Source: Felis catus (lineage: Eukaryota). Taken from it: a DNA stretch of 64,000 nucleotides. Every line of letters begins with the position of its first letter. Positions within the stretch are counted from its first letter, which is position 1. The notes below the pieces were generated by a model. It had not been told where the DNA came from. It worked only from the letters and a program-made list of their open reading frames with translations, and did not search any database. Positions 1 through 48,439 of this stretch are shown piece by piece. Both the position numbers and the translations under genes were made by a program. The DNA lies in assembly GCF_018350175.1 (NCBI RefSeq), contig NC_058368.1, positions 6,944,001-7,008,000 of the forward strand, in the 5' to 3' direction.

Positions 1-784
1 ATCCTTTCATTTATTCAATTTCCAACTCTAATGATTGAATGCTCTATTTTAGAGAAATTACGTCTATGCATTCCTCATTTTTCGAATAGTTTTTAGCATC
101 TTCTAGAAATACCTACATTCTTTCTACTGGATTTTCACTGGGTTACTGCATAATGAAATTAAACTCTGAATAGCATCCTTCCCACAAATTTCACACTAAG
201 CTGCTGCTTTTGGAACTAGACAATGGCACAGGAGAACAATATTAAACAGTCTAGAAAGGAAGAAGAAACACCTATTTTCAGTTGATATTTCATTGGAGGT
301 GACGTGCTAGTCGGATGGTATTTAAAATTATCCGGAATAAAAAAAGAATGAGTAGTTTTATGAACATTTCCTTTGTTCAATCTTAAGCACTTCCTCAAGG
401 AATTATGCAGAATGAGCTTTCTAAGTGACTTCAGCTCTGGGGCAGAGATGCAGACCTCGGCGTTTATCGAATGCTTTCAGAAAGCAAGGTAGAAAGTTGA
501 AGTTTTACTCTTGCTGTGGAATGTCCTTATGGATGTCTCCCTAGGCACACGTGCAAAAGTCACGATGGTATACACACAGGCGGAACTGCTGGGTTTCAGG
601 GTATGTGAATGTTCAACTACCAAGATATTACCAAATTGTGTAGTATTTATGAAAGTGCTCGTGTGTATTTATCATCCCACCAGCAGTATGGTAGAGCTTC
701 TATTCACTTCTGAGACTTGTGATTATGAATTCTTAATTTTAGCCACTTTAGTAGGTTTTGTGTGTTATCTTGTTACAGTCTTTC

Positions 785-950
785 TTTAAGTTTATTTTGA
801 GAGAGTGTGTGTGCACAAGTGAGGGAGGAGCAGAGAGAGAATCCCAAGCAGGCTCCATGCTGTCAGCACACAGCCCAATGCGGGGCTCGAACTCAGGAAC
901 CCCAAACCCTGTGAGATCATGACTTGAGTCATAAGCAATAATCAGACACC
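785..950 (-). mobile_element. Can-SINE (SINEC), truncated
   Basis: gagagagaatcccaagcaggctcc...gagatcatgacttgag consensus on minus strand. Confidence 0.8.
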
Positions 951-952
951 TA

Positions 953-1125
953 GGGCGCCTGGGTGGCTCAGTCAGTTAACCGTCCCACTCTTGATTTCGG
1001 CTCAGGTCATGATCTCTCGGTTCAAGGGATCAAGCCCCACATCAGGCTCTGAGCTGACAGTGTAGAACCTGCTGGAGATTCTCTCTCTCCCTTTCTCTCT
1101 GCCCCTCCCCCCACTGTCTCTCTTA
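953..1125 (+). mobile_element. Can-SINE (SINEC)
   Basis: gggcgcctgggtggctcagtc head, (CT)n tract. Confidence 0.85.
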
Positions 1126-1376
1126 AAGAAGTTGAGCAATTTTTCATGTTTATTCTCCTTTTGTGTTTCGTCTTCCTGTGAAACATCTGTTTGGATGGTT
1201 TTTCCATCGGTTGTTTGTCTTTTTCTGTTTGTTTCAGAGTATTAATCTGAATACTATCTTCTTTGCCAGCGACAGGTGTTGCAGATATCTTCTTCCAGTT
1301 TGTAGACTGTTTTTGTACTTCCTTGTTGGCATCGCTTGATGAACAGAAGTTCTTAACTATAATACAGGCAGATGTA

Positions 1377-1587
1377 GGGGCACCTGGGTGGCTCAGTCGG
1401 TTAAGCCTCCGACTTCAGACCAGGTCATGATCCCATCCTTTGTGGGTTTGAGCCCTACATCAGGCTCTGTGCTGACGGCACAGACCCTGGAGACTGCTTC
1501 AGATTCTGTGTCTCCCTCTCTCTCTGCCCCTCCTCCGCTCACATTCTGTCTCTCTTTCCCGAAAAAATAAACAAACGTTAAAAATTT
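1377..1587 (+). mobile_element. Can-SINE (SINEC_Fc-like)
   Basis: ggggcacctgggtggctcagtcggttaag head, CT tract, A-rich tail; TSD-like ataggcagat/acaggcagat. Confidence 0.9.
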
Positions 1588-1752
1588 ATAACATAGGCAG
1601 ATACATCAATCTTTCTGATTTGGGCTTTTTGTGTCTTAAGCACTTTTTCCGTACACAAAGATAAGATAGTCTTCTATTTCTAAATGTTTAAAGGTCTTAC
1701 CTTTATACATTTACATGTTTAATTATTCTGGATTTAAGTATCAAAAGGCCAC

Positions 1753-1776
1753 TTTTTTTTTAAATGTTTATTTATT

Positions 1777-1812
<36 letters not shown>

Positions 1813-1981
1813 TATGAGTGGGGGAGAAGCAGAGAGAGAGAGGGAGACACAGAATCCAAAGCAGGCTCCGGGCTCTGAACTGTCAGCACAGAGCCTGACG
1901 CGGGGCTCAAACTCACAAACCATTAGTTCATGACCTGAGCCAAAGTCAGACACTTAACCAACTGAGCCACCTAGACATCCC
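1753..1981 (-). mobile_element. Can-SINE (SINEC_Fc-like)
   Basis: Reverse consensus with (GA)n; degenerate TSD atcaaaaggccact/atcaaaaacccact. Confidence 0.9.
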
Positions 1982-3305
1982 ATCAAAAACCCACTCTTCA
2001 GGGCTGATTCACATGTGGAAAAGGTATCCGTAAATTCCTCCCAGGAAAAGTTGCCTGGTGTCTGCTCTATGCTTATGAGATCCTCCCCTTATACATATTT
2101 TGAGCTTGTCACTTGCAGGCCAGGAACAGTCTAACATGGGGACCCTTACAGTCATAGTTACTTCAGGGTGACCTGGTAGAGTAGATTAATTTCTCAGTTC
2201 TCGATCCCAACAGATCTGATAAAGGAAGTAAAATACTTCTGAACATGAAAGGCAATTATAAGGCTACGGGCTGAACAAAATCCCCCAAAAAGCAGAGTTT
2301 TAGACCTCCATATGATGTGACTGCATTTTTGATAACCGTTCAAAGGATCTTCTATGAAAACAACTCTAGTTACTCCTGTACAAACAAGTCAGAGGACACA
2401 AAAACAATTAATGATACTGAATTTAAAAACAACAATCACCACCACCACCACAGGCCAACCCTGCTATCAAATCCACATCTTAATGGCAGGAACTTGACCA
2501 AAAGAGGGAAGCAGGAAGCCAACACTGATACATGACTCTACTCCCAACACGACTGAGCACTTCAGAGACGGCAATACGGAAAAAAGTAAAGCACTTTGCA
2601 TTCTGAGCTAAATTAAAAATAACAGGACCACCCTAACTGGCGTGGGTCTCCAAGCTCTTAAAATAGTGAACATCCCATAAACCTGGTTTCCAAACAAGAG
2701 CAATTCCGCTCCTGATCTTGTTATGTTGGCATCTGAGACTATGACTTGGTCTTTGTGACTATAACGTCACGTGAGGAAGTTGTCTGTTGCCAGCATTAAC
2801 ACACGGATATAAACTTGGAAACCTCGATAACTTTATGGTTTCTTGAATCAAATGCCTACCAGGTTCTCTACTGGGGGAGCAGATCTTTCTGAAATCTGAC
2901 TTCCTTCTTGTCTTTGCAAATCCTTTCCCTTTGAAAGCCTTCTGTTTCGGAGTCCGCCTTTAGCCTGTGCAGTTGGGTGCTTCATCTGCCTATTGGTCAT
3001 CTTTCTCGCTTGGCACGTTGAGCCTTCAATGTGATGACGTCTTCTTTGTTCGCAGCTCACCCACACACCTCATGTTTTGACTGGGAGTATTTTCATTGGC
3101 ATTTTACACAGATTCCTCCTGGATACTGTCCACAGGCTAGCTCTTGGTTTCCTTCTAAAGCAGCAATTCACAGCTCCGTCCTCTCAGAAACATGTAAGAG
3201 GAAACAAAAGGACACTTGTAATGCCACCTCTTTGGTTTGTTGTGGCTCAACCTAAGCAAAACCTAGCAGTTGGAGGTAAGCCAGTCATTAGATTAGTGAC
3301 TTCTT

Positions 3306-3570
3306 GGGGCGCCTGGGTGGCTCAATCGGTTGGGCGTCTGACTTCAGCTCAGGTCATGATCTCACGGTTCGTGAGTTCGAGCCCCGCGTCGGGCTCTGCT
3401 GACAGCTCAGAGCCTGGAGCCTGCTTCGGATTCTGTGTCTCCCTCTCTCTCTCTGCCCCTCCCCTGCTCTCTCTCTCTCTCTCTGCCCCTCCCCTGCTCT
3501 CTCTCTCTCTCTCTGCCCTCCCCTGGTCTCTCTCTCTCTCTCTAAAAAAAAATAAACATTAAAAAATTAA
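3306..3570 (+). mobile_element. Can-SINE with triplicated ctctctctctgcccctccc unit
   Basis: Full head, internal tandem duplication of the CT region, AATAAA tail. Confidence 0.9.
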
Positions 3571-4954
3571 GTTAATGACTTCTTTTAGCAATTTTTATCA
3601 CAAGCCTTCCTTATCAGGAGAAAAAAAAACCCCAGTATTCTCAACTTTATAAACACCTGTAATAACAAAAGATCTTGGGCCTATAGGAGTCAACAGTTTT
3701 CTCTCATTTGCTCTTTACTTTGGACAGAGTTTACATGTCTTCTTGGGGTGACTGTGGCCAAAGTGGAATATCTGTGGCTCCCTTGGGACAGATCTTCACA
3801 TTCTTACCCCTAGAATCCGAGAATAGAGGGTTGATGCAAAGGCCCTGAGGTAGACACATTTTTTTTTAATGTGAAGAGATGGAAACCATCAGAGGCATCA
3901 TAAAATGAGTTGACTTTTAGGTCAAGCCAGGAAGATGCTCACCTTCAGTAACTTTCGGTGCATGTGGAGAACAGTCCTGGGTTCGGATAACACAACTTCA
4001 CATCCTCCTGTGAGGCTCCCAACACTAAATCTGAGCTCTGAAGACACAGGGAATGTTCCTTGACAATGGGCAGATGCCAAGCATTTCTACCTCCCTCCCA
4101 TTTCCATCTTCTAATCGTTGCGGCCAGAAGTGAAGTAGAGAAGCCAGGACACCAGCGGCGGAGAGGAACGTCTCAGGAGTCTCTACCGGACTCGAGCAGA
4201 CATACCCTTCTGACACCTCACATGTCTCAGAGGATGTGAGACAGTCGGTGGTGGTTAGTGAACCCAAGTTCACATTCACATAAAATCCGAGCATACAGCA
4301 GCACAGGCTTAGCGGAGGCGTGAGCACCTTCGTCTCAGCCACCCTCCCAAGGGCCGTGTTGATCCGGATCTTGCGTATCTGAGAAATGTCAAGAGGCTGG
4401 CGAGAAATGAATAGCCCGTCTGGTGCTTTCTCACCAAATGCTGAAAGCAAGGGAAGCATAAGTTCTTTGCAAGATGTCAAGCAGAGGTCTTCAAAACAGT
4501 TCAGGTAAAAGGAAGAGATGAGTCTTTTCCGGTTTTCTGTCACGGTCACACAGAAACCTGCCGACCTAAGGCCCATGCTCAGTGCTCGACTCCAGAGTCC
4601 AACTCTCTGAAAACGTCCGCCAAACGTCCTGCTACCAGGTTTTCCTGGCCTTACTTATTCTGGGAGAACTGAAAGCACCCGGAGTGGATGAAAAGCCTCT
4701 TGTCAGTCTGCATCACCAAGGAGCCCAGGCGCCTTGGACAGAAGGTGCGTACGTTATGGAATAGGGTTCCTCGGAGTAGACCCCACAGAAGGGGTAGGTC
4801 AATGATTTCCAGGGCTCGGCCACAAATCTCCTCAGGCATCCAACTCTCAAGACTCCCAGATAAGTCGGAAGGGATCTGGACCGGATGCTGCCCTTTTGTT
4901 GGAATCAGGAATACCACACCCGTGTCACCCATTCTCTCCACAGGACAGACGTCT

Positions 4955-6399
4955 CTGAAAACAGCAGAGTAGACAACTCCAAGCCTTCATCCCTTCATAA
5001 AAGCAGTGAACAAGCTGGCAAGAATTGTCACGATGAAGTTTTTCAGAACTCTACAATCTAATAAAAGAAACTTTCAGCAACCAGAATAAAGCTCACTGGA
5101 AAAAAAAAAAAAAGCCAGCTGAATTTTGGTAAGAGAGCATTTTGACTTACCTTGTTACCATTGCCAACACAGCTACAGACTTGAAGACAGAAGTCCATTT
5201 TCCTGGTGCAGGTTACTGGGATCGGAGGGACCAGAACCAATCTTATCTCACCTCAAAGAACCGTGGATCCACGTTTTGACCTGAGTAGCTCCCTGAAGCT
5301 CCCGTAAGCTCCTTGAAGGATCTGCTCAAGGACTTGCCTTTGTTTCACACGCCTCAGCTCCAAGGCAGTTTCCTGGGTGACGTTTGCAAATGCATAAGCG
5401 GCTGCCATCTGTGGCAAAGGGTAACAATTAGGGCAAGCAACAGAAAAACCAAAATACTGGGAAGAAAGAGGCTGGAGAAGGGCATATTTCAGGGAATAAG
5501 GGCTTTGAGAAGCTCCCATTTAATCCAGAGAACTAGAAGACTCCCTGCATGCCTGGGCTGGATACATGCTCAGAAAAGACCCGAGAAGAGTCAAAGATCT
5601 TCTCATTGGCTGACCTTCAAGCTCCATGCAAGCAGGAAGTAAACGGCCCGGCCAAGTATCGAGGAGTGCCACAACACAGAGCCCGTCTGAAAAGACTGGA
5701 GAGAGTTTTTAGGGGGCTTTTTTTTTTCTTTTCTTTTTTTACTCCAGGGATTAAAAGAACTCTCTGCCTGACCACTAGCTGACTAGTAAACTAATGGAAC
5801 AGAAACGTAAGTGACCACACATGACAAAGAATATACTTTGAAAATTAGTTCAGAAAAGCCATTTAAAAAACAAGCAACAACAGCTACAACAAACAGCAAC
5901 AACACGTCATGGAGAGAGAGGGAAAAAGTGATTTCCAAAGTTGCCACATGAGAATATTCAAAATATTAAGTTTTCAATGAAAAGATTACAAAGTCACATG
6001 TGAAAGAAAGAACCATTCATAGGAAGAAAAAAGTTAATAGTTCTTGAGGAAGCCCAAATATCAGACTTAACAGACAAAACTTTACTTTTTTTAATATTTG
6101 TTTTTGAGAGAGACAGAATGCGAGTAGGGGAGGGGCAGAGGAGAGGGAGACACAGATTTGGAAGCAGGCTCCAGGCTCTGAGCCATCAGCACAGAACCCA
6201 ATGTGGGGCTCGAACTCATGAACCTGTGAGATCATGACCTGAGCCAAAGTCGGATGCTTAGACTGAGCCTCCCAGGCACCCGAGAGCCACTTTTTAGAAA
6301 ACATCTATATACTCATTGCCAGTTTTAATATTAACATCTTGCCATCTCTGTTTCATCTATTTGTTTTTTACTGAAGTGTTTGAAAGTAAACGGGGTGTA
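4955..6399 (+). mobile_element. Ancient L1M (L1M4/L1MC-like) 5' region insertion, containing a later SINE
   Basis: Motifs aaaagcagtgaacaagctggcaagaattgtc...tttttcagaactct and gctgaccttcaagctccatgcaagcaggaagt resemble old L1M 5' UTRs; flanked by ACGTCT (4949-4954) and ACATCT (6400-6405). Confidence 0.65.
6080..6281 (-). mobile_element. Can-SINE
   Basis: Reverse SINEC consensus. Confidence 0.9.
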
Positions 6400-6990
6400 A
6401 CATCTGTCAACGTTTTGGTTATGTCCCACTTCGTCTTGGCTAAAGTTTCTCATGTTTCCTGGCTTTCTCAGGGAAATCTCCTGACCTTCTTTCCTCCCTT
6501 TCCCTCACATAAAATGTCCAACACTAGTTCCTTATTCATCGTTTAGTCCCATTCTCTCACACTTCTTTCCAATAATACCATGGGAGGCTCACATGTAATT
6601 CTTTTCTCAGAATTGCCTCCTTCTTCTGAGAACAATTTCCCATCATCCTATCCAAATTGTTCTCTCAGGATCTCCAGTTATGACACAACGTCACACACAC
6701 ATCTCTCCTCCTCCTATCACAGTTGCTGTGTCTAGATCTTGTGGCCCAGAGAGGGTTTTCCCACTGGTCTTGGACCTAGGGCCCAGAGAGTTGAGGTGGT
6801 TTCTCTGCAGGTGGCCAACTTGGTCAGCTGCAAAGCTCAGGAGCTATCAGAGGTCAAGTTTCTCTCATGTGTTGAAAGAATGCTTGCAACGAGAGAGAAG
6901 AATGAGGTTGACACTCAGAAAAAGTGGAGCAAACAATCCTTTATTGTTGGGAAACTTTTTTTTCTAACCTCACTTGAATTGGGATTCTGT

Positions 6991-7122
6991 GGGCACCTGG
7001 GGGTCTCAGTGGGTTAAGCATCTGGCTCTTGGTTTCGGCTCAGGTTACGATCTCACGGTTCATGAGTTTGAGCCCCACATCAGGCTCTGCATTGACAGCA
7101 TGGAGCCTGCTTGTGATTCTTG

Positions 7123-7162
<40 letters not shown>

Positions 7163-7252
7163 CCCCCACTTGTGAGTGCACTCTCTCTCCCTCTCTCAAA
7201 ATAAATAAACTTTTTAAATAAGTAAGTAAGTAAGTAAATAAATAAATAAATA
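6991..7252 (+). mobile_element. Can-SINE with (TAAG)n/(TAAA)n tail
   Basis: SINEC head, CT tract, microsatellite tail. Confidence 0.9.
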
Positions 7253-7846
7253 AGGATTCTAGCGCCTGCAGCCAAAAGAGCATGTAAGTGAGTGTGGTCT
7301 GGCCTAGGGGATATCGATAGGGAGAATTGGGTAAAACCTTTAGTCTACCCCCAAATAAAAGTTATAAAGACCACTCTAAACAATCCATCCAACCTCAAAT
7401 TCAAAAGACTTGAAGAGAAGCTATAGTTCTGTGTATGTTTTCAAGGTCAAATATTAATACATAAATCTATAAAACTTAAAAAAAAAAAAGAAAAGAAAAG
7501 GCGGCAAGGAGCTCACCAATGTATGTAGGACATAGGATTTCAGATTGTTACTTTTGTACATTACACGTTCATTTAAAAATCGAACAAAATTTTATTTTGT
7601 ACCTACTTTTTGTAGAAAGCGCCTCAGAAACTATAGTGTGTCTGCTATTGAACCGGAAAATTTAGTTTGTGGTTCTGTATTTTATTCTAAACGTGATCAA
7701 ATACACCTCCACACACACACAAGAGACAGGAAGGTGTATACATTTTATGACTTGTTAAACATACCAACAAACAATAAAAAACAACTGACAAGCTAGAACA
7801 ACATTAGTAAACTGAAAAATTCAGTTAATAATTCTTCTTAAAAATA

Positions 7847-8070
7847 GGGGCGCCTGGGTGGCGCAGTCGGTTAAGCATCCGACTTTAGCCAGGTCACGGT
7901 CTCGTGGTCCATGAGTTCGAGCCCCGCGTCGGGCTCTGGGCTGATGGCTCGGAGCCTGGAGCCTGTTTCTGATTCTGTGTCTCCCTCTCTCTCTGCTCCT
8001 CGCCCGTTCATGCTCTGTCTCTCTCTGTCCCAAAAATAAATAAATGTTGAAAAAAAATTAAAAAAAAAAA
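7847..8070 (+). mobile_element. Young felid SINEC_Fc
   Basis: ggggcgcctgggtggcgcagtcggttaag...ctgatggctcggagcctggagcctgtttc...cccaaaaataaataaa. Confidence 0.92.
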
Positions 8071-8496
8071 TCTATGTAGCCACAGAAATTTGTGAGTCTT
8101 TTTCCTAGACCATACACTGCTGAGCCAAAGTGATTACTCACTTTTGTATCCTATGGTGAAACGTATACTTCTCAAGGGTACAGATATAATCATATAAATC
8201 AACACAAATCAAAACGTGTTGAGCACATGTGCCGATACCGTCTGTCACCTACTCCAGCAGGTCTTTCCTGATCTCCCGGATAAGGATCGTGCCCTTAATG
8301 TTCTCATAGTCTCAGCTGGTCTTTCGTTGGCACATATAAAAATAATTCTTAAATTATCTCCCAATGACTAGTTCAGTATTGTCTCCTGGAAAATACATAA
8401 TCTCCCAAAAGACACGGGCTTTGTTCCCCTCTTCAGGAATGGGCCCCAGTATCAAGCAGGCACATAATGAAATGCTTAGTAAAAGATTAATGAATA

Positions 8497-8725
8497 GGGG
8501 CGCCTGGGTGGTCCCGTTGGTTGAGCATCTGACTTCGGCTCAGATTATGATCTCACGGTTCGTGGGTTCAAGCCCCGCGTTGGGCTCTGTGCCGACAGCT
8601 CGGAGCCTGCAGCCTGCTTCCGATTCTGTGTCTCCCTCTCTCTCTGCCCCTCCCCTGCTCATATTCTCTCTCTCTCTCTCACTCTCTTTCTCTTAAAATA
8701 AGCATTTTTTAAATGAAAAAAAAGA
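8497..8725 (+). mobile_element. Can-SINE
   Basis: SINEC consensus; TSD-like aaaagattaatgaata/aaaagattaaggaata. Confidence 0.9.
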
Positions 8726-9127
8726 TTAAGGAATAAATATGTCACACCACAGAGAATTTTATAAAGGAAGGACTCCATAATTTCTGTCGGTTGTCTTATT
8801 TCTGGCTTGTGCAGAGAATGAGAATGGAGAAAGGAGCGCTTACTACTGAGGGTGAGCGAATGTGAGGCTCTGGCATTTGCGGGCTTGTTTCTCTCCCAGA
8901 GTCCCGTCAACTGTCAAGTGCAGCAAGGTGTGCTTTGTCCTACATACAATCATAGGAGTTTCTCAGTTCGGTGTCCTGTGTTTCCAAATCTTTTTAACTA
9001 CATGGTGATGGATGCTAACTAGACTTATTGGGGTGATCGTTTCACAACATGTACAAATACTGAATCATTATGTTGTCCCCCTGAAACTATATAATATTCT
9101 AAGTCAATTTATGTCAATAACATAACA

Positions 9128-9545
9128 TTTCTTTCTTTCTTTCCTTCCTTCCTTCCTTCCTTCCTTCCTTCCTTCCTTCCTTCCTTCCTTCCTTTTCAGA
9201 GAGGGAGCAAGTGGGCCAGAAGAAGAGAGAATCTTCAGCAGGCTCCACACTCACCCTGGGATCATGATCTGAGCTGAAATCAAGAGTCAGATGCTCAACC
9301 TACTGAGCCACCCAGGTGTCCCTGATGACTCTATTTTTAACATTTATTCATTTTTGAGAAACAGAGACAGACAGAACGTGAGTGGGGGAGAGGCAGAGAG
9401 AGAGGGAGACACAGAATCCGCAGCAGGCTCCAGGCTCCGAGCTGTCAGCACTGAGCCCAATGTGGGGCTCGGACCCACGGAGTGCGAGATTATGACCTGA
9501 GCCGACGTCGGAAGCTTACCCGACTGAGCCACCCTGGCGCCCCCC
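9128..9545 (-). mobile_element. Two tandem minus-strand Can-SINEs, the first with a (TTCC)n tail
   Basis: (TTCC)n 9130-9195; SINE bodies ~9195-9322 and ~9333-9545. Confidence 0.85.
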
Positions 9546-11735
9546 AATCACTCTATTTGAAACTGTGATATCTCATTTCCTCTTTCCTGCTTGATTTTTT
9601 TTTCTCTATGGCACTTGTCTCCATCTGTCTGAATATACACATTGTAACACAATAGTGTAAATAGTGTACCGTTTACTGTCTTTCCCCCACTAGAATGTAA
9701 ACTTCGAGAGGATAGGGATTTTTGTCTGTTTTATTCCCCTGTATCTCTAGCATTCTGCCATGTAGTAGGTGCCCAATGAATGTATGCTCCATGAATGACT
9801 GAATGAACGAATGCCCTGAGCACTGCTTGAGGAAACCCGTCAGCTGGGCAGCAGACTACGTTGGATTAATTGTCAATCTCAAATGGATCCTAAATATCAA
9901 ATCATTCTGTTACAAAAGATGCTGCTACTGTGAACGATCATTTTCTTCAAACTCCATTCATGTTATTAAAATTACCCCTATTAACACTGATTCAGTGGGG
10001 TCAGCTTGCTGCTCCCTTTTCCCCCGTATTTTCCATCTCGGTGTCCAAATATTTTTGAGCCTTTACTATACGGTATGCTACGCACTGGATACAAAGTGAT
10101 AGGCCTAGAGTGACAAAGTCCTTACCTTTATGAAGCTTACAGTTTTCTGAAATTCACCGTGTGAAAGTCACCAGACCACTACCTCTCCCCAGTTTCAAGT
10201 ATCTTCTCTCAGATCAACTAAAATTAAGTAGAATTCTAGCAAATTATTTCAATTCAATCTTGTCCAATGTCACGCACATAAACCAGCTTTCAAAGACCAC
10301 CGAAACCTAGCTTGCAGCACCACAGATATCTAAAAACTAGTCTGAATAGATAGCACTGGGATCGCGTCTATACAATATGAAAGCTGAGTGCAAATTAGCA
10401 ACATGAAACCGCTATCTGACGAAGGTTCTTCATGTAATTTTATGCTTCAGCTTATATAAATCCCAGCGCTAAAACCTTTAAAAGCATTTGTATCAATTAT
10501 TTTACAGAAATATTTTGATGTCATTGTGGTTCATTATAATGGTTATTGTCAGTTTTCCAAAAAAAAAAAAAAAAAAGAGTTTATTTCAATAATTCCGGGC
10601 ATATATGAAACTGTAGCCAGAGTAATTTTTCTAATGGCTAAAAAGGTTTTAGTCTTTTGTCAGCAAGGACTGTAGTTAAAATATTTCAACCGCAGAATCT
10701 TCTTATCCCGTCGGAGTACAGCCAAGTACCTGCAGAATAGTTCGGAGGTAGAAACAGGACACTGCCAGTCAGCAGAAAATTTTGACTCTATCATAGGACA
10801 GAGGCCTAATTGCTCCCCTATTTCATTTGACAACCAGAATGGCTGTTTTGAGAACACTTTTGTGGGTTTCTTTTTAAAGTGTTTCCAAGTTTAATTTTAA
10901 CAGGCACAACAGAGTGCCAGTCCCCTATCTGATTGTCCCACAAAATTTGACCTGCTTGACTTCACCAGCAGTCGCACTGGAAATCTAAGGACATGACAGG
11001 GTAACAGCGAAGCAAAATCAGTTTAGTTACAGGATAAATTAACAACTGCAGACCGTCAGCTCAAGGCAAGTCAGCAAAATTGCACCAAAGCTTGTTCAGA
11101 ATCCACAGGGCAAAATGGAAAATAATCCCACGTGCCCATGTTTCTGAGTTACTTTGCAGGGGCAAGATTACTGTGGGAACATGCATATTTTGACGGGGAA
11201 CTCACCCTAATAGTGTAACAGTCAAAGTTTGTGACAAATAGGGATTACTTCCAGAATTTGCAGGGACATCTCTGGCAGCGGTAGCAGAAGTAGGGGACCA
11301 GGACAGTGTTCATAAGCTTTTTGATCCCAGGACCCCCTTACCTCTTAAAAATCACTGAACTTTCATTTATGTGGATTTTCATCTATCAATATTTACCAGA
11401 CATTAAAATGAAGACTTTCTAGAAATATTCATTCACTTATATAAAAATAAACATAATAATAATAGAAACCTCATACACGGTCACATAAATATTTTTATGA
11501 CAAGTGACTGTGTTTTCCAAAATAAATTCTTTTTCACTGCATTTCTTTTTTGCTGCACCATTTGGTGAGAAGTGTGGCATTGTCTTACCTTTTTGTGACA
11601 TCCGTAAGCTCTAGCTCGGTCGAAAACAACAACTGGACAGTCATCTGCCTCTGCATTGGATCTATTGCCATATGCATTTGGTTGAAGTATATGAAGAAAA
11701 CCGTCTCACACAGGCATGCTAGGAAAGGGAGCAGT

Positions 11736-11968
11736 ATTTTTTAAATTTTTTTTTCATTTTTTTTCAACGTTTTTATTTATTTTTGGGACAGAGAGAGACA
11801 GAGCATGAACGGGGGAGGGGCAGAGAGAGAGGGAGACACAGAATCAGAAACAGGCTCCAGGCTCTGAGCCATCAGCCCAGAGCCCGACGCGAGGCTCGAA
11901 CTCACGGACCGCGAGATCGTGACCTGGCTGAAGTCGGACGCTTAACCGACTGCGCCACCCAGGCGCCC
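11736..11968 (-). mobile_element. Young felid SINEC_Fc
   Basis: Near-consensus; TSD gggagcagtatttt on both sides. Confidence 0.93.
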
Positions 11969-12140
11969 GGGGAGCAGTATTTTAATAACTTTTTCAGGTA
12001 ATTGTGGCTAATCTTATTTGATACCACACCAACACTCCACAGTAACAGATTTTTTTTTTTAAAGAGTAGTTGCAACGTGAAATCTAAATAGTATCAGTGA
12101 CATTTTCATACTGGTACATTAAATTCTATTGGCCCGTGTA

Positions 12141-12303
12141 GGAGTGCCTGGTGGCTCAGTTGGTTGAGCTTCCGACTTGCTCAGGTCATGATCTAGCAGT
12201 TCATGAGTTCGAGCCCCGCGTTGGGCTCTGTGCTGATAGCTCAGAGCCTGGAGCCTGCTTCGGATTCTGTGCCTCCCTCTCTCTCTGCCCCTCCCCTGCT
12301 CAT

Positions 12304-12343
<40 letters not shown>

Positions 12344-12370
12344 AAATAAACAAACATTTTAAAAAGTTTT
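12141..12370 (+). mobile_element. Can-SINE
   Basis: SINEC consensus; TSD-like aattctattggcc/aattccattggcc. Confidence 0.9.
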
Positions 12371-15105
12371 TTAATTCCATTGGCCTTACACTTCAAATGA
12401 TCTTTTCCCATTTCTTATTTCGTAACATTATGTACTGATCATTTGAAAGTATGGTTCACTCCGCTATGCAGATAATCGAAATGTGGAAACATTTAACTAT
12501 ATAAAACAAACTGCGTTTGTTCCTATCACCAATGATCTTAACAGAAAAGTATCTCAGTTGTAGGAAGCTGTCAGGCTCATGGTGGTGGATACAAGTTTTC
12601 CAAACTGTAACTTTTACTTAAAAGCTCAAATTTTCTCCCTTGTTTCCCTTGAAGTAGCAGTAGTCTGGTTTAGGCCGTCAGAAGATGTCAGCCAAATACT
12701 CAACTCCGAATAACCCTAGTTTGTCTGTTCTTTCAAGTAAAAATAGTATTCAATGGGAAAGGTGGTGTTAGTTCAGCTTGCAACTCAAACAACAGAACAG
12801 GTGCTTTTCCTCCAGACAATCATTGTACTGATTATATAGCACAAATGTCTTATCCACAGTTCCCATTTTGTCACATAGTGTATTTAAAAGATGTGTACTC
12901 AGATATGGAGATCAAATAAAATTAATGATTTTTACTGCCCTCATCACACCTATTATTAAGTGAACTGCTTTTATGTTTTTATCTTAGGAGTGCATGGTGG
13001 CGAAAAGTACAATAATGGCCAGTGCCACTGCCTTGATTCGTGGTAAAGCACTAGGTTGTTTTTCCCATTATAGCTTTTGCATCACCAGAGAAATGGCAAT
13101 GCAGTAAAAAAGGCAAATAACGTCTTAACACTATTCTGAAAATAGTTTTGACCTCACACATCCCTTACAAAGGTCCCAGAGACACCCAGGGGCCCACAGA
13201 CCAGACTCCAAAGGCGAGCAAGGGAGAGGACATGCTTTGGGCCTCCCAGGTGCCAGTGCTGTACAAAATGGAAAAGATGTTCTACATTCATTTTCCCAGG
13301 TGGGCTTATAAGTCCGAGATTCTCTTCAACAAGTATCTGTGCTTCCACTTTAAGGACAAAGAAACAGGCTTTAGGAAGTGACAGAACGTAGAATCTAGTC
13401 TGTCGGGCTCCAAAACTCATGTTTTGCCTCCACAGTGGAAAAAGATACCTTCTTTCCAGCTTTGATTTAGGGACCCTCTTGCAGGCTGCCCACCATGATA
13501 AGCCATGCCCCACACTACCATCTAACCTGTTTCCAAGTCTGGGCAAACCTTTTCCTCTAGCAGTAAAACTACTTCTCTTATACTAATTACCTAAGCCAGA
13601 AGTGAGAAGAATAAGGCATAAGAGGTCTTCCCCCCCCCCAATAAGCCCCCACTGGACATTAATAATCTTTACTTTTCAGTTAGCCTGGAATTGGCCTCAG
13701 AAACATCTCAACTCAGGTCCAGGTAGCCATAATCAATCAATCAATCAATCAATCCGAGCTAACAACAGACTTGAAATTTGTCAGCCCTCATTTCTAAATC
13801 ATTATGAGGCAAGTATGTGGGAACAGAGCACGAACCTCTTCCTTTGTTACTAAGTTTACCAGGAAGTGACGTGCACAGCTCCAAGTGATCGAATTACCTA
13901 GGAAAAAAACAAAACAAAACAACTAACATAATCATCAAGAGCAAGGACTGTTGACCCCAACTGACGAGTCTCCTGGAATTTATTACAAGTTCAACGGCCC
14001 ACTAGATGTTTCCTACCTACTACAAAACTCTACATCGTATCTTTTCCCACTTTTCCAAATTGCACTTGACTGTCTAAAGGTAACTAGGCTTCCGTAACTC
14101 ACTGCAATGGCTTCTCCTACTCTCACCGCAACACTCTTCCTGTCTGAACGCTTCTGATATTTGACTAGCTTCTTCCTCATGTTGCACTGGCCTTAAAGTC
14201 TAAGGTAGTTGAAGGTATTTTGGAAGCTGGAGCAAACGCAGGATTTGGGAACAGAAACATCTGGAGACAGACAACGAAGACCTGGGTTAGAGGGCTGAGA
14301 CTCAATCAGAATGTCCAATCACATGGTCACAAGCCGGGTAATGCTTCACGGTTTGCAGGTAGAAAAATTCTGGAAGAGTGCAATCCTTGCCTCCTTGATT
14401 AAAAAACAGATTTTATCTTGTTCATTTCCACCTCCCCCTTCCCCTCGCTTCTCAGGATCTCAAATGAAAATTTTTATGGGGAAAAAAATGATTCTTTTAC
14501 ATAATTATTCTTCACTATACATTTTCCCATTATTCATAGTATTTCAGTTCCCATGACTTCAGTTATCATTGCTGACATTTCCCTGGAGACAAGAATTCTC
14601 ATTATATACTTTCCACCCCGGAATTTCCTAATCAGTTCTCGTTTGAAATCGTCCTCCTGCCAACCTACCAAGACAAAGGGCAAATCAAAAGGAGTCGACT
14701 GAGACTCATATGGACTTCCTAACCACAGCCTCACACAGAAGGTGGATCCAGGTTTCCTCTCAGCTTGGAAAAATTTTTCCTGCTGGAGTTAAACTGCCAG
14801 TGTCTTCTGAAAACCAAAATAAAACAAAACATACACTGAACTTTATTAAAATTCCTTCACAGAAGAAAACATGAAAATGGACATAGCTTTAGCTTATGAC
14901 ATTAGCTTAATGACCAAAAATTATGGGTTTTGTTTCGTATTTTTATTCAAGGCTGGTGCACAACTAATTTCCCTCATTTTAATAAGTCATGTTCCTGTTC
15001 ATTTGTTGACCTTATTTTCTAAAGCTGTTGGATGACCTTCATTTCCCCGAGTTTTGAAAGTTGTTATTCAAAACAACTGTGCTTTTGCAAAAGTTAGAAT
15101 ACCTT

Positions 15106-15335
15106 GGGGCGCCTGGGTGGCTCAGTCAGTTAAGCGTCCAATTCTTGATTTCGTCTCAGGTCTTAGTCTCACGGTTTGTGAGTTCAAGCCCCAGGTCGGG
15201 CTCCGTGCTGGTGGCAGAGCCTGCTTGGGATTCTCTCTCTCCCTCTCTCTCTGCCCCTCACCTACTTGCATTCTTTCTCTCTCTCTCTCTCTCTCCCCTC
15301 TCTCAAGACCAATAAACTTAAAAAAAAAAAAAAGT
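15106..15335 (+). mobile_element. Can-SINE
   Basis: SINEC head and A tail; TSD-like aaaagttagaatacc/aaaagttaaaatacc. Confidence 0.9.
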
Positions 15336-15899
15336 TAAAATACCCTCTACCTAAAATACCCTTACTACTTGTTCTATGGTCAAAGCGTTACTGTTTCCTC
15401 AAGTCCAACCTCCCCCGTGAGGCTTCCTTCTTGTCCGGGGGCTCGTCTCTCATCCACTCCCCCCTCTGACGTACACACACAGTGTCATCCACATAATGCC
15501 TGCACTGCTCGTGTTCAGTGTCCTCTCCTAGACCACTTAGAATATTGGAACACACTCACCTTTTTCTTCCACCAAACTCTCTGTGGAGTCCTTGAGGGCA
15601 AGGGTCATGTTTTATTCATGTTTATAGTCTCATCACTCAGCACAGCACCTGACTTAATCTGGATGCTAATAAATATTGAATGACTTTCGAGTTTTCCTTC
15701 TTTCCACATTCAATTACTGCACATTTCTTTTTAAATTTCAACGCTTTTCTTATTCTTTACATTAATGATCTCAAAGTAGAGACAAATTGACTGTTAGAGA
15801 CTCAGGAAACCACTTTGTTTTTCAGATGTGTATGACAGAGCTAGTGACACAAACCGATTTTAAAAGCCTGCAGTAGAAATAAATGCCTTACATTCTTTG

Positions 15900-16500
15900 G
15901 AGGAATATGCTAAATAAATAAAATGGGGTTCACTTGGAAAAACCATTTGGCAATTTTATATGAAGTTAGAGATACACCCACCTTATGGTCAAGCAACGTT
16001 AAATCTAGGTATTTCCCCCAAAGACATTAAAACATACTCACAAAATGTTGACGACAGTTTTATTTATAGTATCAAAAAATTGCAAACATCCCACTTTCCC
16101 TCTAGAAAAGAATGTCTACATAATTTGTGGTATATTCACACGGCGGAATACTACTTAGTAATGCAAAAGGAATTGCACTATTGGTCCCGATGACGTGGTG
16201 CAATCTTGAAAACACTGAGCTGAACAAAAGAAGATAAGTAAGAGTGCAGACTGTAGGGCGCCATTTATGTGAAATTTCAGAAAAGGCAAAACTACTCTAT
16301 AATTGTAGAAATCAGGATATCAGATGGTTGTGGTGGGGAGGAGGGTTAGCTGGAAAGGGTCATCAGGGAATTTTCCACAGGGATGGCAATGGTCTATACC
16401 TTTGTCGTAAATACTGGTTGTAAAGTTATAAAAATTAGTCAAAGACCATCCACGTATACACTTAGATGTGTGCATTTTAGTGTATGTATTTTAAAAAAAT
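15900..16500 (+). mobile_element. Old L1 (L1MC/ME-like) 3' end
   Basis: ctaggtatttccccc, tgtggtatattcaca...ggaatactact, ccatttatgtgaaatttcagaaaaggcaaaact, tgtgtgcattttagtgtatgt. Confidence 0.75.
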
Positions 16501-19963: not shown

Positions 19964-20559
19964 GCAAAACCCTTTCTTGTACTACTTTCCAGTTCTTTTC
20001 CTACTGGAGGTAAAAATTCTAAGTACGATTTTTACCCCCTTTTATTTCTTGAGTACTCCCAATACATATGCATATATACCTAAGCAACATACGGTAGTGT
20101 TACAAGTTTTAAGATCGTGTGTATATAAATTGTCATGCTATATACATTCTACATCTTCCTCTTCTGGCCTCATATTTCTGGGTTTAGTACTGATTTACTG
20201 GCATATAATATTCCCTCATATGAGCATCCCATTCATGTATTTGTTCTCACCAGGGGAGGTTTCTAATCTTTTGCTTCTACTCAGTGCTGTTACGCATTCT
20301 TGCCTACATGTCAAAGGTTCTGTAAGATACAAACTTAGAAGCAGAATGCCAGGATACAGTATTTGAAAATTTGAGGTTTTACTTCAATCTGACAAAGCGC
20401 TTCCCAAAATGGATGTAACATTTACGCACCTACCAGCAAGAACGTGGTTATGCCGTGACTCATAGAGGAAAAAAGAACTTTTGAAAGACACAAACTGGAT
20501 AATATGCTTTCCTCATTGTAATCTGCCCTCTGTGCTCACGTAATCATTTCTGCAAGCAT

Positions 20560-21700
20560 ACGACTGCTAGGAGCCCCGCAAAAGGCTTAAACTCCGTTAG
20601 ACCAGCCTCTCCCCGGCGCCCGGAGACGCCTGTACACGCCCACTTCCGGCGTAAGCTCAACGTAAAGGCGAACGTCGGCACGCGTAGGACGTAGGCGCCC
20701 TGTTTGACGTCCTTGAAGGCCCCTTTCCGGGCTGTCTGGAAAAATCCAAGTGTCAGCTTGTGTAGGTCTATTGCCTCTTTTTGACAAAAAAGAAAAATAT
20801 TCTAAGGGTTCCCCTTGTTCTCTGAGAAGATCCTTTTCCCCGGAAGAGTTGCTTTCGGCTGGCGTTTCTTTCAGGCAGTGCCGCGGGCAGCCCGTAGGCC
20901 CTTGTAAGGCGCGCGCTGCAGCCCCGCCTCTTTCCTTTCGGCCGGAACCGCCATCTTCCAGGTAGGGCCTGCGCGTGGCTCCCGGTGCCGCTTGCCCCCC
21001 AGACCTGAGTCCTGACCCTGTGACCGCTCCGGCTGTGCATTGAGGCCTGAAAGGGACTGGTTAGACTGTTCGGGGCCCACCGGCCTGGGCGGTGGAGCCA
21101 TGTTCAATCAGACCGGGAGCGGCGTGCGCCGGGCCTGGGCCGGGGGGCTGAGGACCGGACCGCGAGGCCAGGGCCCTGCGGGGGGAGAGGCTCCAGAGAA
21201 GCGAAGTCGAGATACAGCGGGGAGGCGACTCGGGTCAGTTTAGGGAATCGTTGGTTTTTCTTGGGTCCCCGCGGCTTTAGACTCCGTACTCTGGGCCTTC
21301 GGACAGGCTTTGTGGGGCCGCGTGGCCCAGGCAGGCCTTTGGAACTCCGTGTGGAGTTTTGGCCCCTAATGTGCAACCTAAACTTGCAATGGGTTGGGTG
21401 GGGACTTACGGTCGTTTGGGACGGGTTTAAAACGGGCTTAAAGTCAGGAGTTTTAACCTCCAAGGAGGTCTCGGGGTGTGTGTGAAAGCCCAGGCCCGTG
21501 GTCCGAGAAAAGAGTAGATGCCCGCTTAGTCGCCTCGCAGGATGTGAACCCCAGACCCCTCGGCGTTAGTGCTTGTGAAATTATCCCGGTTGTTACAGAT
21601 TTTAGGCCCAAGTCGCATTTGGACAAACGGAAAGTACGTTCAGGTTGCCGTAGGTATTTTAAGGCCGGGGCAGCCGGTGAAAGGATTCCCGAATAGTTGT
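20560..21700. promoter_or_regulatory. RPL21 CpG-island promoter (probably bidirectional)
   Basis: CpG-dense; ETS/GABP CCGGAAG at 20840-20846 (+) and 20641-20649 (-); TGACGTC at 20705-20711; TCT initiator ~20927-20935; YY1-type CGCCATCTT ~20949-20957. Confidence 0.85.
20928..20961 (+). other. RPL21: RPL21 non-coding exon 1 with 5'TOP
   Basis: ctctttcctttcggccggaaccgccatcttccag|gtaggg: pyrimidine-tract start typical of ribosomal protein mRNAs, followed by a GT donor. Confidence 0.9.
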
Positions 21701-22489
21701 GTGTCTCAGGTAGACTCTTGGGGGGAGGGGGAGGAGTTAGTGAATTACCACTTAATCTTAGGTGTTTTGGGGGGGGGGGGGGTTTAGTTTGCTAATTTTA
21801 GCTACCAGAGCTGAGCAAACTGCAGGTGGCGTGCAGGTTGGTGCTTTTGGAGACTAAAGAAAGCATCGCTATTCCCTACATCAAGTATCATTTTCAAAAG
21901 CGTGTGTTGGGTGATTTCTTACTGGGGAAAATGGATCTGGTGAAAGAATGGTTTCTGGAGTCCGAAATTGCTTCCATCATCAAATCTGCCACTTTGTGAC
22001 CCGGGGAAGTGATTTGGACCTGCAGAGCATCTCTTGTATATATGATGGACTTCACGCTTTTGTATGCGCTGGGTACAAATGTAGAGAATTTGAGGATTCA
22101 CGCAGCGTAGCTGGCACTTCATAGATGCTTAGTTATGTTTTTAACCCCGCTTTGGGGGGTCGGGTGAAACATTGTGTCCCTTTGCGTCTCAGGTTCCACG
22201 AAGAAGGTGCTTTGGAGTCACTTTTCTTTTAAGAAGTGTTCATAAGTTAAGGGATTTATGTTAGGGTCTCATCAAGTTAAGCCTGACTTCCATATATTTT
22301 GCCTTGTGGTTGGAGTAATTCCCAGCGGTGGGAGTTCTGCTCTCCAGCGACCTGAAGCATAAAAGCCATTGTTTCAACCTTTTGGGGAACAGTGAAAGAT
22401 GCAATTTGAAATGCCTATATGTGAATTCTTAGATAACGATGAATTAACTACCACTTAATATTAGACACAGACACTAGAAGTTGCTCGGT

Positions 22490-22674
22490 GGGGGCGCCTG
22501 GGTGGCTCAGTTGGTTGGGCGTCGGACTTCGACTGAGGTCACGATCTCAGGGTTCGGATTCGGACCCCACGTCAGGCTTTGTGCTGACAGCTGGGAGCCT
22601 GCAGCCTGCTCCAGATTCTGCCCCTCCCCCATTTGCACCTGCAGGCTCCCTCTCTCTCAAAATGTTAAAAAAAG
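22490..22674 (+). mobile_element. Can-SINE in RPL21 intron 1
   Basis: SINEC head; TSD aagttgct. Confidence 0.85.
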
Positions 22675-23175
22675 TTGCTGAGTGCTTTGTAGACCTGACC
22701 CTGTGTAAGAGATACAGGGTCACAAAAAATGACCTCTTTAAGAGAAGGGGTTTAATCCGCCACGTAAAAATGCAGGGCTGAGTTGTTTTGCTCTCCGACA
22801 GTAAATTACTGTCCGTTAGTAATTCCAGTGCCTTTGGCATTCTCAGATGGGTTCTACAAAAGTGGGGCAGAAGTTCTGTGTTTTATGTTCTAACAGGGAA
22901 AGTACTGGTGTGGGTTCCAAAATCCAGGTCTTCGTAGCTTTAATGTTGATAGCACTTAGGCAGTTTGCGTGAAGATCTACATGCCAAAATGATGGGGTTT
23001 TATCCTTTATGGGAAGTAATTGGTGAGTCAACTTAGATTTTTTTGTTGTAAAGCAAGCATTTGAAATTTACGGGGTTTGATTGGGTTTTTTTTGTTTGTT
23101 TGTTTAAAAAGACAATTACCAATTTTGCGGTTTTGTTTGACGTTTTATACTTACTGTTTTCAGTAATTCGCCAAA

Positions 23176-23242
23176 ATGACCAACACAAAGGGAAAGAGGA
23201 GAGGTACTCGCTATATGTTCTCTAGGCCTTTTAGAAAACATG
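23176..23242 (+). CDS. RPL21: 60S ribosomal protein L21 (eL21), coding exon 1 (exon 2 starts at 23164)
   Basis: ATG at 23176, MTNTKGKRRGTRYMFSRPFRKH+G|gtaag; acceptor ttttcag at 23163. Confidence 0.98.
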
Positions 23243-23433
23243 GTAAGTAGATACTTCCTTCTTGAGAGCAAACATAGTATATATTTGTATAATGTGTTTT
23301 TAATAAATGGTGTTAGTTAACCAGCATCTACCTAACTTGTTCTCTGTAGTAAGTAAAAAGCATAAATTTCATATAGTTGTTTTTTGTCAACAAGATTTTA
23401 AAAATACAACTGTCAAAGATAAGAGTATGTTGA

Positions 23434-23592
<159 letters not shown>

Positions 23593-23972
23593 TAAATAAC
23601 CTACAGAACAACATTAGAAGCTAGAAAAGTGTAATACTGAAATTCAGATACTAGTGTATATTGTATTTCACCTGTTGACTTTTTATTCTCCTAAATAGGG
23701 GGACATTTTTGGCCTAAATAAGAGCTCATAAATGTAGAATGGCTAATTTAACTTCCAGAAACCAGAGTTTTTAAAGTGCTATTCTTGAATCTGAAAACTT
23801 TACTACTTGTTTGTTAACAGGTAGTGGAAAAATCAGGTTTTTTAAGGTGGAAAGGAATAATACGTTCGTACAAAATTTAACTGTTGATGAAGATGGAGAT
23901 TGCTGTTTTCTAAAAAACGGTGAAAGTTACGTTCTTTTGTGATGGGTGTTTAAAAGAATCCTGGCACTCTAG

Positions 23973-24043
23973 AGCTTAATGATGATTGTCTTTTTGATTG
24001 CTTAAAGCAATGTGAAAAACCCATTTCACCGGCTCTGAAAGCT
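23973..24043 (+). ncRNA. SNORD102: C/D box snoRNA SNORD102 (U102)
   Basis: C box ATGATGA 23979-23985, D box CTGA 24035-24038, terminal stem agctt/aagct, guide atttcaccggc complementary to 28S gccggtgaaat; the known host is an RPL21 intron. Confidence 0.93.
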
Positions 24044-24147
24044 CTGGAGTTGCCGTTTAAAAGAAAAATTCTAAGAGTATCTTAGTTACTTTAAGAGTCA
24101 GGATGTAAAAAGGGGAGATTGCTGGCATAACTTTGACCTCCTTTTAA

Positions 24148-24264
<117 letters not shown>

Positions 24265-24307
24265 TAAGTAACGCCTGGTGTCTTTCCAGCTGATTAGTAT
24301 TCCCTCA

Positions 24308-24434
24308 TACCCCCGTTTCACTTTGCCAATTGGACTTATGTCTTTATTGGTCATTCAAGTGGGGCAAAGGAAATATCCTTTCAAAACTCAAGCAAACTGG
24401 GTGTTTGTCTTGTATCCTGTCAGAGGAAACAAAT
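24308..24434 (+). ncRNA. SNORA27: H/ACA box snoRNA SNORA27 (ACA27)
   Basis: 5' hairpin cccc...gggg, H box AAAGGA 24366-24371, 3' hairpin tcct...agga, ACA at 24429-24431 three nt from the end; matches my recollection of SNORA27 in an RPL21 intron. Confidence 0.9.
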
Positions 24435-24727
24435 TGAACTAGACCTAATGAAAAATGTTCATTAGAACTTGGTGTTAAGCAACTCTGATGTTCAGAGTGT
24501 AAAAGGATGTGTAACACGGTGTGAATCTAGTTAGCGATTTGGTTTGCGTATTTAGTATTGTGAGGTCTGTCACCTCGTTAAAAGAAAGCTTACAAATGGG
24601 GGGTGTTTACCTCAACACCTCTTCCTTCCAGTACGATTAATAAATGATTGTAAATTAGCTGTACCTTGCTCTTTAATCCTATTTGTTGGTAAAAGGTTCG
24701 TGGTTGATTTATTTTAAATGGATTGTG

Positions 24728-24912
24728 GTTTTTTTGTTTGTTTTGGGGAGAGAGCACATGGGAGCAGGGGAGGGACTGAGAGAGAGGGAATCCCAGGCTC
24801 CACGCAGTCAGCACAGAGCGCAGTGGGGGGCTTGATCTCCCAAATTAGGATATTGTGGCCTGAGCTCACATCAAGAGTGGGACACTTAACTGACTGAGCC
24901 ACCCAGGTGCCC
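24728..24912 (-). mobile_element. Can-SINE in RPL21 intron 4
   Basis: Reverse SINEC consensus ending ...gccacccaggtgccc. Confidence 0.85.
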
Positions 24913-25002
24913 TTAATGTTTGTTTTTTCTTTTTTTTTTTAATAAATGAAATTGGCAGAAGTGCTTTTGGACTTTGTTACATTTTTGCTGGAGCATTTAT
25001 AG

Positions 25003-25200
<198 letters not shown>

Positions 25201-25354
25201 TGATCTTGGGAATTTTAAAACTTGCTCAGTGGTCATTTTCTTTTACATGAAAGTTAATGAATTGACTATGTTACTTTTTTTTGGTTCTAGAGTACTTTGA
25301 AATTGATGATTGTAGTTTACATGATTGTTCCCTTGCCTTTTTCTTTTTTAATAG

Positions 25355-25444
25355 CCTGCCCCACCCAGAGAAGCACACTTTGTGAGAACCAATGGAAAGG
25401 AGCCTGAGCTGTTGGAACCCATTCCCTATGAATTCATGGCGTGA
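25355..25444 (+). CDS. RPL21: RPL21 last coding exon
   Basis: [32 protein letters not shown]; exons sum to 67+62+113+151+90=483 nt = 160 aa + stop. Confidence 0.98.
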   Translation, partial: [29 protein letters not shown]

Positions 25445-47911: not shown

Positions 47912-47915
47912 AGGA

Positions 47916-47999
<84 letters not shown>

Positions 48000-48049
48000 G
48001 AAAGAAAAAGGGAGGGAGGGAGAGAAGAAACAAAGAAAGGGGGAGGGAA

Positions 48050-48086
<37 letters not shown>

Positions 48087-48289: not shown

Positions 48290-48338
<49 letters not shown>

Positions 48339-48437: not shown

Positions 48438-48439
48438 AC

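Follow-up and report, generated by a model that had tools for sequence, protein, structure and literature searches.

The window analysed here is a 64,000-nucleotide stretch of the cat genome (Felis catus, RefSeq assembly GCF_018350175.1, contig NC_058368.1, positions 6,944,001 to 7,008,000 of the forward strand), in which the ribosomal protein gene RPL21 is preceded by an interval (350-14806) where an earlier reading of the bare sequence had placed the fossil of an intron-containing gene of possibly more than 1000 codons, on the minus strand. Our analysis indicates that this interval probably consists of repeat-rich intergenic DNA with one small, decayed, intron-less copy of an RFPL-like gene, and holds no large multi-exon gene. 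Dead protein-coding sequence on the minus strand, which the original prediction had called for, is indeed present, from about 4719 down to 3785. This sole coding fossil occupies ca. 0.9 kb, corresponding to ca. 270 codons, has no intron between its RING and B30.2 parts and is thus not the gene that had been envisaged. It also falls into a family, RING plus PRY/SPRY of the RFPL type, where the original prediction had been unable to assign one.

The most conspicuous part of the relic is an open reading frame (ORF) of 209 amino acids (aa; 4028-4654, minus strand), which is absent from the peptides quoted in the original prediction. With ORFs counted from stop to stop, it is the sole exceptional ORF of the interval: its length was reached by three of 200 controls shuffled in 1-kb blocks and by 0.5% of 1000 local shuffles. 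The longest minus-strand ORFs outside 3701-5000 have 130 and 142 aa, the latter length being reached by 24% of shuffles. An adjoining 111-aa ORF (4654-4986, minus strand) was considered as a possible B-box and rejected; it found no profile support, and 24% of local shuffles contain an ORF of such length. At the DNA level the region 4025-4986 is single-copy in the genome, all genome searches having covered the 2.4-Gb cat assembly.

When the 209-aa ORF was compared by phmmer with 1.84 billion representative proteins, five proteins only were retrieved, all of them unnamed ORFs on ENA or Logan contigs of ca. 1-1.8 kb: the near-identical P0001, followed by P0002 (E 3.6e-9), P0003 (1.5e-6), P0004 (5.1e-6) and P0005 (2.3e-4). 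These five relatives and the 209-aa ORF were combined into a six-sequence profile, A1. Homologous-protein searches with the ORF and with A1 returned the pseudogene ORFs themselves and nothing else. Among PDB sequences, all nine matches of A1 at E<=10 were RING or B30.2 proteins, the best being the RFPL1-like PRY-SPRY structure 2fbe (E 0.015, profile positions 101-173) and the others the TRIM31 RING, found twice (positions 10-63; E 0.3 and 0.42), TRIM21, also twice, pyrin and three butyrophilins.

Since no ORF of the relic reaches a Pfam family, its family was assigned from profiles, rank and frameshift-aware alignment, each of them modest by itself. The PRY model (PF13765) matched the cat genome 53 times, and sequence was retrieved for 30 loci; 24 cat B30.2 ORFs containing both a 'D..TA' and a '[YF]WE[VI]' motif were kept, and the loci without such an ORF (L016, L022, L024, L030, L032 and L033) were dropped. 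A hidden Markov model (HMM) of the 24 ORFs was then searched against 555 stop-to-stop pieces of at least 20 aa from positions 1-16000 of the window. Rank 1 of the 555 was the minus-strand piece 3925-4086 (HMM positions 76-128, E 0.0024), and rank 2 was the piece adjacent to it in another frame (3813-3938, minus strand, HMM positions 136-155, E 0.027); the 209-aa ORF gave a weak third collinear match (HMM positions 4-51, E 4.3). A PRY-SPRY profile is therefore matched collinearly along the B30.2 domain. In a tblastn comparison of the same 24 ORFs with the whole 64 kb, the top six of 136 rows lay at 4134-3822 on the minus strand, the best of them belonging to L025 (E 5.3e-4, in two collinear pieces).

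A purpose-written, frameshift-aware local alignment, for which shuffled protein served as the control (n=12), placed aa 74-182 of the 199-aa L025 B30.2 exon on 4103→3785 with a score of 99 (35.1±4.1 for shuffled protein), 40 identities in 104 positions and three frame changes, and reached the C-terminal 'ICP' motif. The corresponding alignment of L028 (aa 111-170 on 4242→4056) scored 77 (40.2±7.3 for shuffled protein), with 25 of 59 positions identical, and in it a stop at 4113 replaces the Trp of 'YWEV'. Stricter scoring of the two, with 30 shuffles each, gave 84 versus 32.4±4.2 and 61 versus 35.0±3.8.

L028, which we take to be RFPL4B-like, is a 271-aa single-exon ORF with a clear C3HC4 RING directly followed by PRY/SPRY; an exact look-up of its protein returned no named record. 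In a set of 357 ORFs, positions 11-167 of A1 align in one collinear stretch to aa 5-164 of L028 (E 1.8e-7). When the N-terminal part of A1 was used alone, four of the five RING-bearing ORFs were among the six best sequences, with the alignment falling on the RING in every case, and the remaining two of the six were paralog ORFs; the E-values of this search are weak (0.07-0.4), and the RING-bearing ORFs are also the longest in the set. The related sequence P0004 matched four Pfam families, all of them RING types, the best being zf-C3HC4_4 (E 3.6e-4, 21 bits against a cut-off of 30). The Cys/His pattern of zinc ligands is not found in the window copy, where the positions aligned to the RINGs of L028 and TRIM31 are mostly neither Cys nor His. 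The RING ends about 40 codons before the PRY begins, and no B-box or coiled coil was matched by Pfam among ORFs of at least 48 aa in 1-16000, so that a RING is followed directly by B30.2, the arrangement that defines the RFPL type. Of the types compared, RFPL, other TRIM and butyrophilin, the first is also the nearest to the B30.2 part, by small margins on the relic itself. The best PDB match of L025, presumably RFPL4A, is the RFPL1-like 2fbe (E 2.2e-71), with TRIM21 next (3.1e-46). As far as its sequence tells, the relic is a putative RING plus B30.2 gene of the RFPL type.

The reading frame of the relic is broken within its SPRY part. From about 4576 a single ancestral frame runs through the RING-like part and the PRY to 'VLAS', continues in a second frame ('FTSGRND*KMEMGGR*KCLASAHCQG…VSIFL') and then in a third ('SFYDASDGFHLFTL…'), and the last ca. 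60 codons of the 209-aa ORF are out-of-frame read-through. A match by eye of 'REVEM..LGICPLSRN' to 'WEVEVG..LGVC' was discarded, as it lies in the alternative frame, at a place where the ancestral frame reads 'FTSGRND*KMEMGGR*KCLASAHCQG'. Among the close relatives of the ORF, P0008 is identical to it and P0001, P0006, P0007 and P0009 are 89-97% identical, these four carrying 15 bases (5 codons, 'GYRCL') that the window lacks at about 4100 on the minus strand. The difference is an indel among closely related sequences.

L025 contains an out-of-frame ORF to which the tail of the profile aligns (E 8.4e-7), which shows that the pseudogene ORFs run into an alternative frame of the same DNA. Over the SPRY part this frame is open in intact L025 (118 aa, 1548-1901, plus strand of the fetched locus) and in L028 (96 aa, 1548-1835, plus), and it is also the frame in which three pseudogene ORFs, those of the window copy (4028-4200, minus strand), the paralog (P0002) and P0004, continue after leaving the ancestral one. 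Such sharing may be a matter of ascertainment, only long open ORFs entering the protein collection; it could also hint at a long-standing overlapping frame in this gene family.

One other genomic copy of the relic was found, at C17:161157703-161158161, with 36% aa identity and four TGA stops; P0002 matches it at 97%. Its DNA is 67.6% identical to the relic over 290 bases and 70% over 124 bases, and the 10 kb around it have SINEs (short interspersed elements) only in common with positions 1-16000 of the window. Neutral sequence changes at about 2e-9 substitutions per site per year; a DNA difference of 32%, or ca. 0.42 substitutions per site after Jukes-Cantor correction, would accordingly put the separation of the two copies at the order of 100 million years if both have been neutral. 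Retroposition is suggested by dispersal without shared flanks and by RING and B30.2 not being separated by an intron. In the relic, RING and B30.2 are contiguous; upstream of the L025 B30.2 exon no RING ORF lies within 1.47 kb, so the L025-type gene is split. Since the L028-type gene is natively single-exon, contiguity of RING and B30.2 is no proof of retroposition. Most likely, an RFPL-type mRNA was retroposed, or an already intron-less RFPL-type gene was copied, about 100 million years ago. Neutral decay would then have replaced most of the zinc ligands and introduced at least two frame changes into the SPRY as well as in-frame stops, leaving a relic that presumably has no protein function now and a 209-aa frame that would be part ancestral and part out-of-frame. 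The relic is an ordinary old pseudogene.

The signals on which the large gene had been built are present as written. Four motifs consisting of a pyrimidine tract and AG were confirmed on the minus strand, ending at 14806, 10984, 6882 and 2215, GTGAGC directly follows 7517 and 3943 on that strand, and the four quoted translations were reproduced with their internal stops and frame change. These peptides span 36 to 76 codons, and internal stops or a frame change occur in two of them. To judge the motifs, we counted them on both strands of 350-14806 and in 100 dinucleotide shuffles of the interval, an acceptor-like site being defined as at least 11 pyrimidines in 15 positions followed by YAG; ORFs were compared with the 200 block shuffles. 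The minus strand has 38 acceptor-like sites and the plus strand has 45 (shuffled, 35.2±5.9); in the same order, the counts are 39 and 26 for GTRAGN (33.5±5.6), 6 and 2 for GTGAGC (3.9±1.7) and 7 and 1 for AGGTRAG (3.0±1.6). There are 57 minus-strand and 67 plus-strand ORFs of at least 50 aa (44.6±5.0), and four on each strand of at least 100 aa (2.4±1.5). Since motif and ORF counts match those of the plus strand and of the shuffles, the statement that all signals lie on the same strand is a product of having read one strand. The listed splice-like motifs and short frames are the expected yield of any such 14 kb, on either strand. In addition, the 'donor' at 3943 falls in the middle of the SPRY coding remnant, and the 'acceptor' at 6882 lies within a block that occurs once more, at 74% identity, on another chromosome.

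Searches with the proposed exon segments were equally unproductive. None of 141 ORFs of at least 48 aa from both strands of 1-16000 matched Pfam at E<=0.01, and at E<=1 a set of 32 ORFs gave scattered, unrelated, sub-threshold names only. The 76-aa ORF that was the flagship of the original prediction (10663-10890, minus strand) had no longer protein relative among 18 candidates, no genome paralog and no PDB sequence, and the 125-aa piece 13208-13582 (minus strand) had no genome paralog. Compared with PDB, the ORFs 13157-13582, 14016-14192, 2012-2185 and 14537-14788 reached a best E of 0.56, with mutually unrelated names returned. The named clusters of the ESM Atlas offered no usable match. No group of segments matched a single protein collinearly with exon borders falling on the listed splice motifs; the four quoted peptides are no part of the fossil, and no relative was found for any of them.

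The interval 350-14806 is intergenic DNA made of carnivore SINEs, old transposon pieces and unique sequence, with no remains of a large gene. tRNA-derived SINEs, typical of carnivores, are abundant across the window; a comparison of the window with two further cat loci places 11 SINE stretches inside the interval and one more beyond its end (Table 1). SINEs account for 2,728 of the 14,457 bases of the interval and the old repeats tested for ca. 2,000, together about one third. The stretch 11308-13207 is read as a single old DNA-transposon-like element, presumably hAT/Charlie-like, split by two younger SINEs; Pfam found no transposase domain in it. A terminal 'ggggtcctgggatcaaaaagc...cactg' end of this element was seen near 11300. 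The short repeat at 9671-9753 we take to be MIR-like. The two-copy block, ca. 790 bp long, which contains the 'acceptor' at 6882, has no obvious coding or long terminal repeat features and may represent either an ancient repeat of low copy number or a duplicate dispersed long ago. No second genomic copy was found for 1990-3310, 3580-5385, 9754-11289 and 13208-14900 beyond one 39-base match in 9754-11289, and most of 7230-7840 has three short genomic matches elsewhere only.

Several observations weigh against reading the interval as intergenic DNA with a single relic. No relic ORF matches Pfam at E<=0.01, and neither PRY (PF13765) nor SPRY (PF00622) appears at E<=1, as is expected of a frameshifted, heavily decayed copy. 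Because the true relic is thus missed by Pfam, the Pfam blank of the interval is weak evidence, and other, equally decayed relics could lie among the segments; the large protein collections or the genome were searched with two of the originally proposed ORFs, the others with Pfam and PDB only. AGGTRAG is somewhat more frequent on the minus strand than in the shuffles, a single mild excess in a series of tests. The 209-aa ORF is open in five related sequences, which simple decay would not predict; the collection takes in open ORFs only, and this biases the count of open relatives. Finally, inspection by eye of the sequence downstream of 3785 and around 4719 showed neither a poly(A) tract nor target-site duplications, so that retroposition is inferred and not shown; at this age such marks would be erased. 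Some of these points could be turned in favour of the unique segments being exons of a dead gene of more than 1000 codons spread over ca. 14 kb: its motifs and peptides exist as written, AGGTRAG is in mild excess, several segments are single-copy in the genome and the Pfam blank says little. We nevertheless regard such a gene as extremely unlikely, given that motif and ORF counts equal those of the plus strand and of the shuffles, that no peptide finds a relative, that one proposed donor and one proposed acceptor lie in the SPRY remnant and in the two-copy block, and that the sole coding fossil is compact and of a different architecture. The cattle and human gene lists discussed below, in the parts covering this locus, also name nothing between RPL21 and USP12 (PMC9247466, PMC3476997).

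The AGGTRAG excess could also be due to a spliced non-coding RNA that crosses relic and repeats and uses some of the listed splice sites, the frames being meaningless; it could be divergent from the RPL21 side or of a USP12-antisense type. A human long non-coding RNA named LINC00412 exists in the literature, and we take it to lie between USP12 and RPL21. With overall motif counts at chance, we think such a transcript rather unlikely, though it would be compatible with an intergenic interval containing one relic. A multi-exon TRIM gene that ended in the B30.2 remnant, and whose RING, B-box and coiled-coil exons lay upstream among the segments, would agree with most of the fetched cat TRIM-type loci, in which B30.2 forms a separate frame of ca. 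200-290 aa. This reading is very unlikely, as the RING-like remnant lies ca. 40 codons before the PRY in the same open frame, collinear with L028, and no ORF of at least 48 aa matches a B-box or coiled coil. The unusual length of the ORF (three of 200 block shuffles, 0.5% of 1000 local shuffles) and its openness in five distinct related sequences of 89-100% identity would also be expected if the 188-209-aa frame were a lineage-specific protein still made in cats, with a degenerate RING, a PRY part and a novel tail. The bias of the collection towards open ORFs, the departure of the frame from the ancestral B30.2 frame, the loss of RING ligands and the segregating 15-nucleotide indel make a living protein just as doubtful as the TRIM exon. 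A broader proposal, that the relic marks an RFPL-type gene resident between USP12 and RPL21 in early placentals and then lost (a unitary loss), and that cats translate the 188-209-aa frame into a PRY protein specific to their lineage, which lacks a RING and ends in a novel tail, is likewise very unlikely. One decayed RFPL-like copy in intergenic DNA accordingly remains the reading that we favour.

The setting of the interval agrees with the locus upstream of RPL21 that had been recognized earlier: SNORD102, SNORA27 and the L21e exons are in place, and a Ras-family exon follows downstream (Table 1), which by its position would be RASL11A and which adjoins a very GC-rich stretch at 32-36 kb. The orientation implied by 'head-to-head with RPL21' holds; adjacency does not, for the interval ends ca. 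6 kb upstream of the RPL21 promoter, whose CpG island, the sole CpG-rich stretch nearby, lies at ca. 20.5-21.5 kb (observed/expected CpG of 0.95 and 0.73). RPL21 adjoins USP12 in a cattle (PMC9247466) and in a human (PMC3476997) gene list, with nothing named between them in the parts of these lists that cover the locus, both of which give annotated genes only. No report of a dead gene between USP12 and RPL21 was found in the literature searched. Elsewhere in the window, 48-50 kb are strongly purine-skewed (GC skew 0.40, AT skew 0.34), and at 47808-48923 several frames are open on both strands, with ORFs of up to 372 aa and no Pfam match; this stretch looks like a low-complexity G/A-rich repeat.

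Table 1. Positions of the relic, of repeats and of neighbouring genes in the 64,000-nucleotide window
Feature	Position	Strand	Remarks
Putative RFPL-like (RING + B30.2) pseudogene remnant, whole	3785-4719	-	upstream limit from DNA homology to paralog L003; downstream limit from alignment to L025 B30.2 exon
RING-like remnant	4394-4516	-	from profile alignments; zinc ligands mostly replaced
PRY/SPRY (B30.2) remnant	3785-4279	-	three frames, in-frame stops, 15-nucleotide deletion relative to P0001
209-aa open frame	4028-4654	-	ancestral frame through RING and PRY, then alternative SPRY frame
GTGAGC 'donor' of the original prediction	3943	-	inside SPRY coding remnant
Flagship 76-aa ORF of the original prediction	10663-10890	-	no relative found
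Carnivore SINE cluster	818-1989		copies 818-1112, 1361-1591, 1752-1989
SINEs	3296-3514, 6081-6296, 6980-7225, 7840-8077, 8464-8723		
SINEs	9224-9545, 11737-11971, 12138-12365, 15102-15333		
Old interspersed repeat	5386-6078		copies 64-77% identical; at least 43 other places, 213 candidates
Two-copy block	6300-7335		one other copy, 74% identical, on contig C16 (L034 4661-5421); window copy split by SINE 6980-7225
Short old repeat	9671-9753		19 other genomic places match
Old interspersed element, tested part	11308-11740		33 other places
Old interspersed element, tested part	12400-13207		44 other places, 488 candidates
RPL21	20501-25441	+	CpG island, L21e exons, small nucleolar RNAs
SNORD102	23973-24043		score far over Rfam threshold
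RPL21 exon ORF	24148-24264	+	Pfam Ribosomal_L21e, E 3.4e-17
SNORA27	24308-24434		score far over Rfam threshold
RPL21 exon ORF	25003-25200	+	Pfam Ribosomal_L21e, E 1.3e-4
Ras-family last exon	36040-36621	+	Pfam E 2.7e-19; downstream of RPL21

The biological weight of these results is small: dispersed dead copies of the RFPL/TRIM type are known genomic debris, and the flank of RPL21 holds no lost large gene. Their interest is mainly methodological. Splice-like motifs collected by eye on one strand, together with short frames that look protein-like, occur at chance level in repeat-rich mammalian intergenic DNA, and a fossil invisible to Pfam was recovered through a very large ORF collection, profiles and frameshift-aware alignment to paralogs from the same genome.

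Compared with the RFPL genes of the cat, L028 and L025, in which RING stands directly before PRY/SPRY, the relic has the same order of domains, and L025 is the closest of the 24 cat ORFs to its SPRY; it differs from them by frameshifts, stops and lost zinc ligands, and it is too diverged for real RFPL proteins to have been reached in the search of 1.84 billion proteins. With the B30.2 proteins of the TRIM family (TRIM21, TRIM31, pyrin and butyrophilins) it has the B30.2 fold family and the RING type in common, but it contains no B-box or coiled coil and scores more weakly against them than against those of the RFPL type. As a separate observation, the PRY search also brought up at least four single-exon, full-length TRIM-type ORFs of 482-509 aa (L017, L019, L023 and L027) within ca. 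150 kb at C11:63.02-63.17 Mb. A parallel to the relic is offered by the RFPL4A pseudogenes of human, which, in the passages of the two papers that concern them, are dispersed and include RFPL4AP3 on chromosome 4p15 near PPARGC1A (PMC6906185, PMC13702204): like the relic upstream of RPL21, they are dead RFPL4-type copies scattered between unrelated genes.

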